Positions 1 to 6,965 of a stretch of DNA of 6,965 bases are shown here, piece after piece (position 1 is the stretch's first letter; the number at the start of each line of letters is the position of its first letter). The translations under genes were made by a program, and so were the position numbers. Under the pieces are notes generated by a model. That model saw nothing but the letters and a program-made list of their open reading frames with translations, was not told the origin of the DNA and searched no databases. Origin of the DNA: a virus; the UHGV virus genome UHGV-0228105; one strand, given 5' to 3'.

Positions 1-1825
1 CAATGCGGACCTTCCAGGCCACACCGTCAACAATAAAGCCCTCCTGCTGCTCAAGGTAAGGCTCGTCATTACCGTCAAGATAAGCCACCTCAATTGTGTC
101 CGTTCCCTGTGCTGAAAGCATGTACCATTGCTTATCACTGACTTCATCAAGGCGGGGATCGACAATAATATCCAGTTGTTTGTGGTACGGGTTATATGAA
201 CCACTGTTTGTATCGGCACCAAAAGGCGTGGTTGAGTTAACCATTTGCAACGCTCTGTCTTCCAGAGCCGCTGGAACAAGAAGGAATTTTGGCACAATAT
301 TCAGCACTTCACCGTTTTCATCCCTCTGTGTGCGCATTGCACGGCGTGCAATGCCAAGCCCTGTAGTGCTGACTCCGTTATCAATATCATTTCCGTGTTT
401 TTTGCTGAACAGCGGTATACCGTCAGAAAGCTTTGTGTTTCCTGTCAGCACCAGATGAACCAGATTACCCACCGTTCTGGCGGCTGCTCGCCCCATTGCC
501 TGTGGGATAACTGTTAACTGATTCAGGTCATCGTTAATAATCGCCTGTCGGGTAATGCTGAAAATATTTCCGTAAGTTGCCAGCGCGATTGGTTCGCCAC
601 GGTCACTGGTGGTGATGTATTTATATTCCGCGCCTTCCGGCACTTTGTTTAATGTAGAGAAGCCATTCAGGCCAACACGACGTGCCTCATGGAAGTTTGA
701 CAATGAACCTTTTTTCGTCCACTGGCGGAACGTTTCGCCGCTGTGTTCCCATCCGGCAAGCACGGATTTTTCAGCACCACCAGCAAGGATATAAGTAAAA
801 TCGCTGCTGCTGTGGGTGAATGCCGCGTTTACTATCTGCGAGCGTGTGCTGTAGCTGCCTGTGCTTATGCCGCGATGGGTTAATGATGCCTGCGCCATAT
901 CGAAAAGGCTCATCATGGCGTAAGGGTTGCCGCGTTCTGCCTGCTCGTGCCCAAGACGCGCATTAAGCCCCTGACGCATTGCATCACCCGTTATGTTGCC
1001 GTTATCCGTATATGCGTAGTAAAGATTTGCAGGTGTGGTTTTGTTTGTCGGTGTCGATTCTTTACCCATAGTGAGTAAAAGACGTTCGCGCGCATCCTCA
1101 ACGCTACACCCTGAATCAGCAAGACAACTTATAGCCAGGTCGTTATATCTTCCGTTGAACGTACCGAACAACTCACGGATCCCGTTGAGTCGTTCCTGTT
1201 CTCCGCTGGTAGTTTTCTGGCTGATCATGTTCTTAATATTTTCCGGCATATTTGAAAAATCTCCGATTCGTTTTGATTCAATTCGGGCCATTGCTGTAAT
1301 CGCGGGTATAACCTCGTCTGCGAAGCCGTTAGCCCTGCACTCGTTGCCATCCATCCAGGTTTCCGCCTCCATCATGGCGGTGATTTCCTGTTTGCTCTTC
1401 CCCGTTCTTCCGGCGTAGGTTTCCGCCATCGTGTCGCCCATCTTGTCCATCAGGTCGGCAAAGCGGCGAACATCTCCCGACACTCCGGCTGTAACGCCAC
1501 GGGGGGCGTGTATCATCATCATTGCGTTTTCAGGCATAACGATGTGATCGCCACACATGGCAATAAACGAGGCCATAGAAGCCGCCATACCTTCAATGTG
1601 TACGATTTTTTTTGCCGGATGATTTTTCAGGGCGTTATAGATAGCCAGCCCTTCAAAGATGTCACCACCTGGTGAATGAATGCTCAGATGGATTTCAGAC
1701 ACATTACCGCACGCGTTGATCTCGTCAGTAAGTGCCGATGCCTTTACACCGTACCCGCCGATCTCGTCATAAATGCGCACATGTGCAACATCTGACATAG
1801 CCTTAATGGAAAACCATGTTTTCAT
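1..1825 (-). CDS. ClpP-like (S14) prohead serine protease fused in-frame to a phage major capsid protein; start complete, 3' end runs off the left edge of the window
   Basis: Minus-strand frame is open from the ATG at 1825-1823 down to position 2 (608 codons, no stop). It is absent from the ORF track only because the stop lies outside the window. The N-terminal ~190 aa carry ClpP-type motifs (IHLSIHSPGGDIFEGLAIYNAL; GMAASMASFIAMCGD with a candidate catalytic Ser; MMMIHAPRGVTAG; ECRANGFADEVI). The C-terminal part (TYGNIFSITRQAIINDDLNQLTVIPQAMGRAAARTVGNLV ... PFGADTNSGSYNPY ... EVAYLDGNDEPYLEQQEGFIVDGVAWKVRI) looks like a phage major capsid protein. The start overlaps the upstream stop as ATGA. 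Plus-strand ORFs in 96-1418 are antisense artefacts. Confidence 0.8.
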   Translation of the reverse strand, partial: MKTWFSIKAMSDVAHVRIYDEIGGYGVKASALTDEINACGNVSEIHLSIHSPGGDIFEGLAIYNALKNHPAKKIVHIEGMAASMASFIAMCGDHIVMPENAMMMIHAPRGVTAGVSGDVRRFADLMDKMGDTMAETYAGRTGKSKQEITAMMEAETWMDGNECRANGFADEVIPAITAMARIESKRIGDFSNMPENIKNMISQKTTSGEQERLNGIRELFGTFNGRYNDLAISCLADSGCSVEDARERLLLTMGKESTPTNKTTPANLYYAYTDNGNITGDAMRQGLNARLGHEQAERGNPYAMMSLFDMAQASLTHRGISTGSYSTRSQIVNAAFTHSSSDFTYILAGGAEKSVLAGWEHSGETFRQWTKKGSLSNFHEARRVGLNGFSTLNKVPEGAEYKYITTSDRGEPIALATYGNIFSITRQAIINDDLNQLTVIPQAMGRAAARTVGNLVHLVLTGNTKLSDGIPLFSKKHGNDIDNGVSTTGLGIARRAMRTQRDENGEVLNIVPKFLLVPAALEDRALQMVNSTTPFGADTNSGSYNPYHKQLDIIVDPRLDEVSDKQWYMLSAQGTDTIEVAYLDGNDEPYLEQQEGFIVDGVAWKVRI

Positions 1826-2016
1826 AGCCAGGCTCCTAACGTTGCCTGGTACCAGTATTCAACCGCGCTGCGTGTGATTTGTCCTTTCGTGGGTACTGGC
1901 ATACCCGGGTGATTATCTTTGATGAACTGCTGATAGCGTTCGATCTTCTCCATAGTTCCGGCGTCTATGTGTACCGTGGCACTTTTATCCGGCTTTCTGG
2001 TGTTGTTCTCTGGCAT
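1822..2016 (-). CDS. Small protein (64 aa), possibly ribbon-helix-helix DNA-binding; translationally coupled to the protease-capsid gene
   Basis: ORF-track ORF 1822..2049 (75 aa). The internal ATG at 2016-2014 has a near-ideal Shine-Dalgarno (GGAGGCGGA, 7 nt spacer), so the start is placed there; 2049 is the alternative. Sequence MPENNTRKPDKSATVHIDAGTMEKIERYQQFIKDNHPGMPVPTKGQITRSAVEYWYQATLGAWL fits a strand-helix-loop-helix pattern. Stop TGA overlaps the downstream ATG (ATGA). Confidence 0.55.
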   Translation of the reverse strand: MPENNTRKPDKSATVHIDAGTMEKIERYQQFIKDNHPGMPVPTKGQITRSAVEYWYQATLGAWL

Positions 2017-2211
2017 AAATCCGCCTCCGTTTTGATTAACGGGCATCATTATTGATCGATAAAAGTAATAGATAAATCATTTTCTACCTGAAAATCAGAT
2101 TATGTTTTTTCTGATTATTCTCAGAGAGGCAAAGCCATTGACGCATTTTTGCTATTGAAGCAATATTAAGACTCGTCATCCTGGCGATAAAAACTCCTTT
2201 GTCGTGTAAAA

Positions 2212-2247
2212 GCGCCTCCGGTAACAGCAATCGGGGGCGCTTTTTTT
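2212..2247 (+). terminator. Rho-independent terminator-like hairpin, strongest on the plus strand
   Basis: GCGCCTCCG (2212-2220) / CGGGGGCGC (2232-2240) form a 9-bp stem with one G-U wobble on the plus-strand RNA, 11-nt loop, followed by T7 (2241-2247). On the minus strand the same stem has a C-A mismatch and only a 4-U tail. Confidence 0.45.
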
Positions 2248-2444
2248 GCGCCTGTTTTTTTGTAAATGTTTTCGGGAACGCTCCAGTGATGAACGAAAAA
2301 CAACCTTATTCGACACTAAAAATTTTTATTCCTCAATATATCAATAACTTATAGTGGTGGTGATGGTGCCATAAAAATCAAAAAATGCGCCTTTTTCCGC
2401 GCCCCTCCGCCCCGTGGACAGGCTCACCCCGCCAGGAGGACCCG

Positions 2445-2468
2445 CAAAAAAGCCGGATTGCTCCGGCT
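2445..2468 (-). terminator. Rho-independent terminator of the upstream minus-strand small genes
   Basis: Minus-strand RNA: stem GCCGGA / UCCGGC, or 7 bp if the flanking A-U pair is counted (plus 2451-2457 and 2462-2468), GCAA tetraloop (GNRA type), then a U5-6 tract (plus A-tract 2446-2450). Lies 7 nt downstream of the stop at 2475-2477. Confidence 0.55.
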
Positions 2469-2474
2469 GTGTGA

Positions 2475-2750
2475 TTAGCTGTCCTGGTAATTGCGCCATA
2501 TTTCATCGCTTACACCATCTATACCCATTTCAGCATAAGTGCGATCTACTGCCTTTCTCAGGTCACCGAAGTTATCCGGCGGCTCCGGTGGCCTCTGTGC
2601 CTTCCTGGAACATTCCAGCCGTCGCATCGTAACCTGATGCCGTTCCTTGTCTGTCTCCACCAGCAGCATGACTTCACCCCATCGCGCCGCCGCCCTCCGG
2701 TAAAAGCCTTTCGCCTCGAGTTCCTCCGCTATGCGGTCATGTACCATCAC
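2475..2750 (-). CDS. Small protein (91 aa), tentatively PerC/Pch-family transcriptional activator-like
   Basis: ORF-track ORF; overlaps the upstream ORF by 14 nt and is followed by a terminator. N-terminal segment DRIAEELEAKGFYRRAAARWGEVML matches my recollection of the PerC-family signature (acidic helix then RRAA-RW). This is recalled, not searched. Confidence 0.5.
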   Translation of the reverse strand: MMVHDRIAEELEAKGFYRRAAARWGEVMLLVETDKERHQVTMRRLECSRKAQRPPEPPDNFGDLRKAVDRTYAEMGIDGVSDEIWRNYQDS

Positions 2751-3021
2751 CTGACTCTCCGGTTTTTACGTTGATGGTTGTTACCTGTTCCGCTTCGGCA
2801 ATCTCCCGTTCTGTCATCGTGGCAAAGTTTGCCGACGCCGTGGTCATGAATGCGCTTATCAGTTCGGGATGTTCCTTCGCGTATCCTTCCCCGGCGTGGC
2901 GGTCTATCGTTCTGATTGCCACCTTTAATGCGTGCTCTGTCATGTCTAACGCGCGATATTTCGGTTCTGTTCTGTCTCTGCATTTTTTGAGTGATTTGTT
3001 AAATTTCCCTGAAGTGTGCAT
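2737..3021 (-). CDS. Hypothetical protein (94 aa)
   Basis: ORF-track ORF with protein-like composition. Purine-rich GAGGGGG lies ~11 nt upstream of the ATG at 3021. Sits immediately downstream of the iteron region. A competing 78-aa arginine-rich ORF (2747..2983) in another frame is judged spurious. Confidence 0.5.
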   Translation of the reverse strand: MHTSGKFNKSLKKCRDRTEPKYRALDMTEHALKVAIRTIDRHAGEGYAKEHPELISAFMTTASANFATMTEREIAEAEQVTTINVKTGESGDGT

Positions 3022-3060
3022 TTTTATTTTTACCCCCTCGTTTAAAAAGTTTTGAGTTGT

Positions 3061-3300
3061 ACCTCTCCCCCTCTACCCCTTCTACCCAGCACCACCAAAA
3101 GCCAGCAATGGCGCACCTTTCAGCAGGGTAGAGGGCTTTTAATCCCCTTCTACCCGCCCTCTACCTGTCTACCTGGAATTGATAAAATCAGGTAGAAGAG
3201 GTAGAGGGCTTTTATTAGCCTTCGACCTGGCCCTCTACCCACCTATCATATTGAATAATATATATTTATTTACTTCAGGTAGAGGAGGTAGAGGGCTTTT
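3061..3300. repeat. Iteron array with AT-rich core: candidate origin of replication
   Basis: At least 11 copies of a 9-mer family in both orientations. GGTAGAGGGCTTTT occurs at 3127-3140, 3200-3213 and 3287-3300; degenerate copies GGTAGAAGA at 3191-3199 and GGTAGAGGA at 3278-3286. Inverse copies CCCTCTACC at 3069-3077, 3157-3165 and 3231-3239; CTTCTACCC at 3079-3087 and 3147-3155; TCTACC at 3168-3173. A 30-bp almost pure AT stretch lies at 3245-3275. The array ends 9 nt from the primase stop codon. Confidence 0.6.
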
Positions 3301-3308
3301 GCAAAAAA

Positions 3309-5057
3309 TTATAAAAACGCGTCACAATCGTCTGTTGTTATTGCGTTAGTCTGCGTTACTCCCTTAACTTTCCGAGTAATATATTCATGACCGTAAACTT
3401 TCGCAGCGGGTTTCATAGCTTTGCTGAACTCAGCCACGTTTAGCGGCTTGTTCCTTCCGGCGTATGCCATAAACGCCAGATAGACGCGGTAAAGGCTGTT
3501 TCTGGTCGTGTACCTGGAAGAGTCACCACCACCGCCCATCATCAGGCCGTGCGCTTCCTCCAGAAAATTAAGAAACTGGCAAAACTCAATAACCGGATCC
3601 GTTTGCTGCTTTATCGCCAGTGCTTCATCACCGTCACGCTGTTCCAGTAGTAAAGCCCGCGCCTTTTCAGGGTCGGCAAAGTTCGCCAGTAATCGGCGGA
3701 TAATGACGGGGATTTCAGCCGCGATTTTTTCCGGTAGCTCCCTGTCTTTTTCAGCCTCACTGACGATATTGTCGAAACGGAAAATCACGCGACGACGTGC
3801 CACGCCTCCGGCCCGTTCGGTGAATATCATCGGGTTGTTGTTGGTTGCCAGCACAACCGCCCTGATTACCGCTGTGAAACGCTTCTCATATTTCGGGTTA
3901 ATTTCCACGGGGTCACCGCCCGTGATTTTCTTGATGCCCGTGCCTTCGCCTGTATATTTCGGCTGGTCAGCCAGGACAATAAGCCGACTCCCGACAACCT
4001 GCGCACGCCCACCAGCATCATCAAGCGATGTCATCTCAGCACTTACCGTGTTCTGTTTCCCTGCCAGAAGGCTGGCTATATGCGTAAATGTACTCTTGCC
4101 GCTCCCGCCCTCTCCTGTGGCCTCAATAAACATCTGCCAGTCGTACCGGTTCGCCATAATCATGTACAGCGCGGCACATATACGCATCATCTTGCGCGGG
4201 TCTTTTCCGGCTGCGTGCTCAAGCCATTTATGAAAGTTTGGCGCGTTGTCGCGAATGTTCTCCCCTGGTGCTGGTGGCGTGTACTCAATGCCGTTGTGCG
4301 TGGTGATCCAGTTCTCCGGCGTGTGCGGGGAAAACTCCCCCGTTTTCAGGTCAAGCGCACCATTGGCGAACGGCAGCAAATCGCCGGACGGCTCGCCCAT
4401 TGGTTCGGCAATAACTTTTAACGCTTCCACGGCGTTATTGATTACGCGCTTGCTGAACGTGGCTTTATGTTCTGAATAAATCGCCACCATTTCGCGGCTC
4501 AGCTCCATTGTGCTGACCGGGCACCATACCCCGCCGCGCCAGATGTGGACGATTTCACTTTCCGGATCCACACAAACGCCATCAAATCGACCAGCAAGCA
4601 TCTGTGCGCGCTCACTGTCTGCCATTTGTGCCAGTTGCGTATTTTTCTGCTCCGGCATGGTAATCCCTGCGGCAATATTTTCACGCTCAGCATTCAGATA
4701 GCGCCGCCAGTTTTCACACTTCTGACCGTGCATTCCTTCTGGGTAAAAATTCGCATCCTGAATATCTGCCACCGCCAGCTTCTGACCAATCTTTTTGGTC
4801 TCCACTAAATCCAGTTCTCCGGCCTGGTACAGCCTTACGCGCTTTTTCCCATCCGGAACAATTTTCAGCGCATCAAGTTCGGCAAGCTGCTTTGGCCCAA
4901 GCCACACAGGCGGCACATTATCGCCGGATGCGGGGCCATCCTGTTCCTGCCATTGTTCCGCGTGTGACCAGGCATCACTACCCGCAAAGATAATTACCTC
5001 TGTGTCTTTGTGTTTTATTCCGCGTGGCTGTTTTTTTACGTTCGGTGCCAGTTTCAC
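3309..5057 (-). CDS. Primase-helicase / replication initiator of the D5 / P4-alpha (SF3 NTPase) family, 582 aa
   Basis: Long ORF-track ORF. Walker A GEGGSGKST followed by a hydrophobic stretch ending in acidic residue (RLIVLADQ), typical of phage/plasmid primase C-terminal NTPase domains. Start is GTG at 5057-5055 with AGGGG ~8 nt upstream, overlapping the upstream stop (GTGA). Stop TAA at 3311-3309. An N-terminal primase catalytic motif is not recognisable by eye. Confidence 0.88.
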   Translation of the reverse strand: MKLAPNVKKQPRGIKHKDTEVIIFAGSDAWSHAEQWQEQDGPASGDNVPPVWLGPKQLAELDALKIVPDGKKRVRLYQAGELDLVETKKIGQKLAVADIQDANFYPEGMHGQKCENWRRYLNAERENIAAGITMPEQKNTQLAQMADSERAQMLAGRFDGVCVDPESEIVHIWRGGVWCPVSTMELSREMVAIYSEHKATFSKRVINNAVEALKVIAEPMGEPSGDLLPFANGALDLKTGEFSPHTPENWITTHNGIEYTPPAPGENIRDNAPNFHKWLEHAAGKDPRKMMRICAALYMIMANRYDWQMFIEATGEGGSGKSTFTHIASLLAGKQNTVSAEMTSLDDAGGRAQVVGSRLIVLADQPKYTGEGTGIKKITGGDPVEINPKYEKRFTAVIRAVVLATNNNPMIFTERAGGVARRRVIFRFDNIVSEAEKDRELPEKIAAEIPVIIRRLLANFADPEKARALLLEQRDGDEALAIKQQTDPVIEFCQFLNFLEEAHGLMMGGGGDSSRYTTRNSLYRVYLAFMAYAGRNKPLNVAEFSKAMKPAAKVYGHEYITRKVKGVTQTNAITTDDCDAFL

Positions 5058-6740: not shown

Positions 6741-6965
6741 TTACGCTGCCTTACCTGAATTAATGCGATCCCGGCTTTTAACCCATTCCATAACCTCGGA
6801 CAGCAGCCAACCTACAGAACGACCGCCCAGATTAAGGCGTGACGGAAATCGCCCTTTTTTCTCCAGTTCGTAGCGTGTAGTACGGCACACTCCAGTTAAC
6901 TTACGACATTCATCCTCACGGATTACGCGATCTGATAGTGATTGAAATTGTGTATTTTGATTCAT
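6741..6965 (-). CDS. alpA: AlpA-family (MerR-type HTH, excisionase-like) transcriptional regulator
   Basis: Translation contains the AlpA-type core CRKLTGVCRTTRYELEKKGRFPSRLNLGGRSVGWLLSEVMEWVKSR (compare the recalled pattern L-x-R-S-T-I-Y-x-L-x-x-G-x-FP-x-P-x-x-LGGR-x-V-GW-x-x-SE-V-x-x-W). The ATG falls exactly at the window edge (6965-6963), so the true N-terminus could lie outside the window. Confidence 0.85.
   Translation of the reverse strand: MNQNTQFQSLSDRVIREDECRKLTGVCRTTRYELEKKGRFPSRLNLGGRSVGWLLSEVMEWVKSRDRINSGKAA

Follow-up and report, generated by a model that had tools for sequence, protein, structure and literature searches.

We analyzed a 6,965-nucleotide (nt) stretch of viral DNA (UHGV virus genome UHGV-0228105; the window denotes this whole stretch) that, judged by its gene content, belongs to a phage satellite of the Gram-negative phage-inducible chromosomal island (PICI) type. 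An earlier note, made from the letters alone, had described positions 2050–2470 as a non-coding gap with two terminators, an operator-like inverted repeat and a possible small RNA. The gap is very probably the packaging and regulatory junction of the satellite and, read in the direction of the genes (minus strand), would consist of a terminator, a cos site, a plus-strand hairpin, a spacer, an inverted repeat and a capsid-operon promoter. About half of it (2249–2450, minus strand) is, by homology to helper-phage DNA, a lambda-type cos site. The earlier note thus had the anatomy right but overlooked cos. On the comparative evidence, a small RNA is a rather unlikely addition to this arrangement. 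The features are as follows:

2468–2451 (stem) and 2450–2445 (T-run), minus strand: predicted intrinsic terminator after the PerC-family gene, from folding and an inverted-repeat search
2443–2437, minus strand: cosQ heptamer GGGTCCT, identical to the lambda bases in a MAFFT alignment
2397–2416: putative cosN, with a predicted 12-nt cohesive end, GGGCGGAGGGGC, at 2412–2401 on the minus strand between CACG and GCGG
2249–2400, minus strand: cosB-like block, from homology to phage DNA
2212–2240, plus strand: GC-rich hairpin with an 11-bp stem and a 7-nt loop, followed by T7 at 2241–2247; predicted intrinsic terminator
2174–2247, plus strand: hypothetical RNA of about 73 nt with two hairpins (−30.9 kcal/mol, z −5.8)
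2138–2167, plus strand: sigma-70-like candidate promoter TTGACG-18-AATATT, a 9/12 match pointing at the hairpin
2093–2116, both strands: inverted repeat AATCAGA-N10-TCTGATT, a probable regulator-binding site
2075–2070 (−35, TTATCT) and 2053–2048 (−10, AATAAT), minus strand: predicted weak capsid-operon promoter with a spacer of 16 nt, an 8/12 match
1822–2016, minus strand: open reading frame (ORF) of 64 codons (phrog_4934) with the Shine-Dalgarno sequence GGAGG at 2028–2024, found only in E. coli

The cos site

The cosQ heptamer of the window stands at the position of the lambda GGGTCCT, which we take to be the element recognized as cosQ in the lambda literature. At cosN the window reads ACG-GGGCGGAGGGGC-GCGG (2415–2397), and the joined ends of lambda read ACG-GGGCGGCGACCT-CGCGG; the left half is identical to lambda, while the center and right half differ. 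From cosQ to ACGGGGCGG there are 21 nt in the window and 20 in lambda. A search of the window for GGGTCCT-N19-23-ACGGGGCGG gives a single hit, and 200 shuffles give none; the combined cosQ/cosN pattern recurs in related satellites and phages. One related phage, deposited as a linear assembly (LR595868.1), starts with CCACGGGGCGGGAGC and ends with GGTGGCCTG, so that the record ends fall 5 nt from the predicted nick.

The homology to phages extends beyond these short elements. Positions 2283–2400 are homologous to the phage DNA that lies between cosN and terS, and similarity continues to about 2249. Within the phage collection the gap is matched only at 2283–2450, and in annotated phages the lysis genes always lie on one side of the match and the small-terminase gene on the other. 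Phage 1720a-02 shows 91.7% identity over 168 nt, with the match ending 31 nt before the terS ATG; mEp460 shows roughly 75% identity at the right end of a record whose first gene is terS. The prophage at the related locus L002 (related loci are designated by L numbers) also carries a homolog between its lysis genes and terS, with a 15-mer match. Furthermore, the motif TTTACAAAAAAAC (2266–2254) is common to the cos region of the L002 prophage and to a second cos found in the related satellites. The phages that match the gap encode a DUF1441-type small terminase.

The gap was queried by blastn against 5426 complete E. coli genomes, and 39 further copies were taken from IMG/VR, from which 33 distinct upstream sequences were aligned. 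Allele counts are given over 44 related sequences, and 30 distinct sequences bear the promoter-hairpin module (2125–2262). The cos segment at 2283–2450 is present in about 2000 of the 5426 genomes. In relatives, the second complete cos (cos2) follows directly after the stop codon of the capsid fusion gene, in a region outside the window (L001 9600–9810; L002 6600–6808). Over 204 nt, its cosB shares 85–87% identity with the cos of the prophage into which the L002 satellite is inserted in strain H6437. A single satellite therefore carries two cosB types, one like that of 1720a-02 at the position of the window's copy (cos1) and one like that of the H6437 prophage at cos2.

The minus-strand terminator

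As the earlier note proposed, a minus-strand terminator is found at 2445–2468; it has a 7-bp stem and a TTTTTT tail (−12.6 kcal/mol, z −2.95), and it also abuts cosQ. In the MAFFT alignment a hairpin occupies the same position before cosQ in lambda (48450–48472), in lambdoid phages and in both satellite cos copies (L002 at about 18040–18060 and L001 at about 9785–9805 provide further examples of pre-cosQ hairpins). A T-run follows it in all of these except lambda and mEp460. To our knowledge, no function has been assigned to this pre-cosQ hairpin.

The inverted repeat and a predicted capsid-operon promoter

AATCAGA-N10-TCTGATT is present as an exact inverted repeat where it was first described, and AATCAGA occurs once in the window. 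Both arms are identical in 36 of the 44 sequences, with a single-base difference in the others, while the 10-nt spacer varies; because the arms are conserved and the spacer is not, the repeat is likely to be a protein-binding site. Downstream of it in the gene direction, TTATCT-16-AATAAT is the best minus-strand sigma-70 match within 2010–2300. This candidate promoter lies within block 2001–2102, which is conserved even in a sub-type that has lost the promoter-hairpin module. From the predicted start at about 2041, the center of the repeat would be at approximately −63.5, and the leader would be 25 nt long and hold the GGAGG. This layout fits an activator-dependent promoter, although as a prediction only.

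A proposed role for the gap

These elements suggest the following sequence of events. The hairpin and T-run at 2468–2445 would end the replication/PerC operon. The helper terminase, a gpA-type TerL with a TerS of the DUF1441 type, would bind to cosB and introduce nicks at cosN, after which it would package the replicated satellite DNA toward the capsid genes. The GC-rich hairpin at 2212–2247 would keep plus-strand transcription out of cos and the replication genes, and it may also provide a partial stop to minus-strand read-through. Beyond it, the poorly conserved spacer at 2117–2211 carries the plus-strand promoter-like site. The inverted repeat at 2093–2116 would bind a regulator of the weak promoter at 2075–2048, which in turn would drive the 64-codon ORF and the protease/capsid fusion gene.

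Several observations weigh against this interpretation. The nick predicted from lambda misses the ends of LR595868.1 by 5 nt, and the center of the cohesive end is unlike that of lambda and variable among alleles. At cos1, the cosQ heptamer is mutated to AGGTACT in 28 of the 44 sequences (L002, L006–L008, L018, L020 and others). The promoter assigned to the capsid operon matches at only 8 of 12 positions, and for the regulator of the inverted repeat there are candidates only: the PerC-family protein encoded just upstream, AlpA and the 64-residue protein. Finally, cutting, packaging and transcription at the gap are predictions from sequence. With regard to cosQ, the copy in the window is intact, and in the AGGTACT loci it is the second cos that matches the intact cosQ/cosN pattern. 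Given the frequency of AGGTACT, some cos1 copies may be initiation-only or decaying.

The plus-strand hairpin

The second hairpin was said to be a good terminator on the plus strand only. It is present and longer than described, with a folding energy of −24 kcal/mol on the plus strand versus −18.1 kcal/mol on the minus strand; the lower stability of the latter arises because two plus-strand G·U pairs become A·C mismatches. The tails differ as well, with T7 on the plus strand of the window versus TTTT on the minus strand, and T7–8 versus three to four T residues across all alleles. Each of the 30 distinct module-bearing sequences preserves the stem and the T-run, whereas the loop is variable and includes an indel. 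The hairpin occurs neither in the phage cos regions nor in cos2 of the satellites, and we rejected the idea that it is a part of cos. We regard it, from its folding and conservation, as a real plus-strand terminator that is specific to this lineage.

Of the 5426 complete E. coli genomes, 144 contain the promoter-hairpin module, and many of these are Shiga-toxin producers; block 1650–2290 moves as a single unit in the 144 genomes with 95–98% identity. The module is restricted to one E. coli satellite lineage, and searches for the hairpin pattern across species genomes returned only chance matches in unrelated GC-rich taxa. Likewise, a search of 185,579 species genomes found no relative of the 64-residue protein, and its protein database clusters are from E. 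coli only. As these searches brought up no distant relatives, a deep covariation analysis is impossible. Even within the satellite group, one sub-type (L011, L045 and L046) shares only 2001–2102 with the window. The module is replaced there by the hairpin GCCGGA-TTTTTT-CCGGCT followed by TTTTTT, a predicted terminator on the minus strand.

One explanation confines the hairpin to the role of an insulator between cos and the replication genes on one side and capsid-operon control on the other, acting mostly on the plus strand and partly in both directions, with any RNA a functionless by-product. In both satellite sub-types a terminator hairpin separates cosB from the conserved promoter block, albeit in opposite orientations, and the hairpin and its T-run are conserved while the sequence from the promoter-like site to the hairpin drifts. 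The flanking A7 and T7 are also what is seen in bidirectional terminators, and the minus-strand fold still reaches −18 kcal/mol. However, the minus-strand U-tract consists of only three to four U residues in all alleles, for which poor termination is expected, and, the candidate promoter aside, there is no obvious strong plus-strand transcription to be stopped. On balance this is a realistic possibility, though somewhat less likely than not.

A putative plus-strand RNA

The alternative use of the same terminator is to end a short RNA. The earlier note pointed to a promoter-like element and the hairpin as the two ends of a plus-strand transcript of about 70 nt, and the element is indeed found at 2138–2167. 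Such matches are not in excess in the window (6 found versus 7.8 expected from shuffles), and the only notable feature of this one is its position, about 45 nt upstream of the terminator. The −35 hexamer is TTGACG in 40 of the 44 sequences and TTGACT in 4. The −10 hexamer is more variable, with AATATT in 19, AGTATT in 21 and ACAATT in 4; the A at its second position, which is critical for sigma-70 promoters, is lost in 25 of 44. Examples of the AATATT allele are strains 95-3322 and O22:H8 154 (100% identity over 2125–2262), while O157:H7 H6437 carries AGTATT. The promoter-hairpin unit is consequently conserved only in part: the hairpin and T-run are kept in relatives, but the −10 is disrupted in more than half of them and the whole module is absent from one sub-type.

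The RNA body fares no better. Positions 2117–2211, comprising the promoter and the RNA body, form the least conserved segment of the gap, with 57–67% identity in the divergent alleles L012 and L047 (65–67% for the RNA body alone). In the same two alleles the leader, the inverted repeat, the T-runs and cosB retain 85–99%. A covariation analysis across homologous islands had been suggested as a check; RNAalifold finds a compensatory change in none of the 21 predicted pairs. The upstream helix of the RNA tolerates four one-sided transitions without a break, although this is not significant. In summary, the proposed small RNA has its terminator on the correct strand but neither a conserved body nor a covarying structure.

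Database searches produced no counterpart. No Rfam family reaches threshold in the gap. No C4/CI-type RNA appears among the matches listed (whole window at E ≤ 1; 2040–2480 at E ≤ 10), and whether Rfam holds such a model was not checked. Several named RNAs were considered and rejected. The match to ctRNA_p42d (23 bits versus a gathering score of 50) reflects terminator shape only. STnc130 (25.5 bits versus 55; minus strand, 2200–2340) is a core-genome small RNA near dmsA, and its match was treated as chance. Esr41, an enterohemorrhagic E. coli island small RNA of about 70 nt, is encoded in a different context, in SpLE1/OI-43 between z1181 and z1182 and beside ter and iha. A search for trans targets of the RNA body in the window, a helper prophage and phage loci recovered the cis complement and one chance-level 12-mer (E 0.36), and a literature search for the hairpin sequence found no paper that contains it. 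The comparison with satellite P4, which had been invoked in support of a small RNA, also fits poorly. The element is of the PICI type, and the CI RNA of P4 arises by processing of an operon leader, without a promoter of its own (PMC10111431).

The claim to be weighed is then that an RNA of about 73 nt starts at about 2174, downstream of TTGACG-18-AATATT, ends at the 2212–2247 terminator and acts as a regulator, which would be compatible with the cos site. Its most plausible form is a cis-antisense RNA whose promoter and that of the capsid operon face away from each other on either side of the inverted repeat, a common regulatory design. The plus-strand specificity of the terminator in every allele and the retention of the −35 in 40 of 44 sequences are consistent with such an RNA, as are its stable fold (z −5.8) and the upstream helix that stays unbroken despite four one-sided changes. 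The chance of finding a 9/12 promoter within 100 nt upstream and on the correct strand is also small, at an estimated 0.04 or so. Against this stand the −10 hexamers that lack the second-position A, the variability of body and promoter, which leaves no conserved seed, and the lack of compensatory pair changes. In the sub-type of L011, L045 and L046, a minus-strand terminator takes the place of the module. Rfam lends no support (no family at threshold and, among the matches listed, no C4/CI type), complementarity to the satellite or the helper does not exceed the chance level, and the sequence is in no paper found and is confined to one E. coli satellite lineage. We consider such an RNA unlikely.

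It is doubtful that a lineage-specific plus-strand RNA of this kind, divergent from the capsid-operon promoter and ending at the conserved terminator that abuts cosB, is a regulator of the satellite. If it were, it could serve as an antisense to read-through entering the capsid operon, or as a shield for cos and the replication genes, and it would be off in alleles with the A-to-G change in the −10. It would also, if real, be the first regulatory RNA in satellites of this type, an idea that the evidence does not favor.

Open reading frames in and around the gap

The statement that no credible ORF lies within 2050–2470 holds, with only ORFs of 52 codons or fewer present and no Pfam or PHROG match for the one tested. 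The true gap is slightly longer, as the most likely start of the ORF downstream is ATG 2016, which has the GGAGG in front of it and is the start annotated by PGAP in two related genomes. The stop codon of this 64-codon ORF overlaps the start of the ClpP/capsid fusion (ATG 1825) as ATGA, and the two are translationally coupled. The AlphaFold model of the protein (pLDDT 63) has two helices and is too poor for a fold search. The protein may be a small DNA-binding regulator. A ribbon-helix-helix fold is a guess from the sequence pattern that is supported by no search.

A further reading of the variable segment is that it encodes a minus-strand peptide of 30–31 residues, from ATG 2179 to the stop at 2084. 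The frame is open in three divergent allele classes, in L012 by way of a new ATG after a 1-nt insertion. Nevertheless, codon 15 is a stop in the commonest allele, the frame has no Shine-Dalgarno sequence at a usable distance and no PHROG match, and its amino acid identity (about 55%) is below the nucleotide identity (about 65–70%). We rejected this ORF on the basis of the stop, the missing Shine-Dalgarno sequence and the identity values, and such a peptide is highly improbable.

We note that some public annotations call short "hypothetical proteins" across cos, in the window (2341–2499, minus strand) and at L006 (5342–5506), as well as in 1720a-02 and mEp460. Gene calls that overlap cosQ and cosN are probably spurious.

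Satellite identity and gene context

All long ORFs of the window are on the minus strand. The genes identified with Pfam and the repeats are as follows:

6744–6965, minus strand: AlpA regulator (Phage_AlpA)
3312–5057, minus strand: D5-type primase
3066–3300: iterons GGTAGAGGGC, at least 10 copies in both orientations, between the primase gene and a 94-codon ORF and before the PerC gene
2478–2750, minus strand: PerC-family regulator
From ATG 1825 off the left edge of the window, minus strand: ClpP-protease/major-capsid fusion
Minus strand: DUF4222 protein

The iteron cluster is a probable replication origin, and its repeats account for chance matches to microRNA families in Rfam. In related E. 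coli chromosomes the same gene order is found in islands of about 10 kb with an integrase at the boundary. The sites of these islands are diverse, with one adjoining a tRNA-Pro gene, one within tqsA and one adjoining clpA/cspD. In E. coli O157:H7 H6437 (L002, 4775–17327), the same satellite type splits the large-terminase gene of a lambdoid prophage and is co-oriented with it.

The combination of AlpA, a D5-type primase, iterons, PerC, the ClpP/capsid fusion and, in relatives, integrase-bounded islands of about 10 kb identifies the element by its gene content as a Gram-negative PICI-type satellite resembling EcCICFT073 (the type is described in PMC6092414), and not as a P4-like element. Of the hallmarks of a PICI, the window itself supplies AlpA, a primase with adjacent iterons and co-directional genes, while the integrase and the size of about 10 kb come from the related genomes.

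PICI cos sites are already known; the result here is a functional map of an "empty" gap in a common E. coli satellite. The map marks the expected cutting site of the helper terminase, the probable control region of the capsid operon and the hairpins predicted to be terminators.

Comparison with known systems

Lambda OOP and P22 sar are short antisense RNAs of phages, each with a promoter and an intrinsic terminator of its own, and P1 C4 is an immunity RNA. The putative RNA resembles these and P4 CI by functional analogy only, as an RNA of 70–80 nt with a strong hairpin and a U-run; it matches none of their sequence or structure families (for C4/CI, among the matches listed). The late promoters of P2 and P4 are activator-dependent and have a dyad upstream of a weak −35. 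They are likewise similar in layout to the capsid-operon promoter, with an inverted repeat about 60 bp upstream of a weak promoter for satellite morphogenesis. Here, however, the repeat sequence differs, no Ogr/Delta-type activator was identified and the promoter is a predicted one.

The cos of the window resembles that of lambda in having GGGTCCT at the aligned position, ACGGGGCGG at the left nick with a spacing only 1 nt longer, and a hairpin directly upstream of cosQ. It differs in its cohesive end (GGGCGGAGGGGC instead of GGGCGGCGACCT), in a cosB without recognizable similarity to that of lambda and in its association with a DUF1441-type small terminase.

Helper-embedded PICIs have a cos-like block in common with the helper, reported at this position (PMC10111431). 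The H6437 copy, inserted in the prophage gene for the large terminase subunit, has the same configuration as these elements (PMC10111431), but other copies of this satellite occupy other chromosomal sites.

E. coli PICIs possess functional cos sites, in two copies, near a capsid homolog, and the cosB of EcCICFT073 bears no relation to that of phages and is recognized by a heterodimer of Rpp and TerS, the rpp gene lying after cos (PMC6092414, PMC6739421, PMC9026076). The satellite studied here is similar to EcCICFT073 and its cos1 and cos2 in that it carries a copy of the helper cosQ and cosN downstream of the replication module and beside a capsid homolog, and two cos copies are again seen in the window's relatives. 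In contrast, its putative cosB is 92% identical to a phage cosB, and cos is followed by a lineage-specific spacer, the 64-codon ORF and the ClpP-protease/capsid fusion. No rpp-like gene, and hence no sign of Rpp-type packaging, was found among the genes examined in the window or the products annotated in relatives. Unlike the best-studied E. coli PICIs, then, this satellite has kept a putative cosB of phage type, and none of the genes examined is rpp-like. With two cos sites in its relatives, whose cosB sequences are like those of two different phage groups, this arrangement may bear on helper range.

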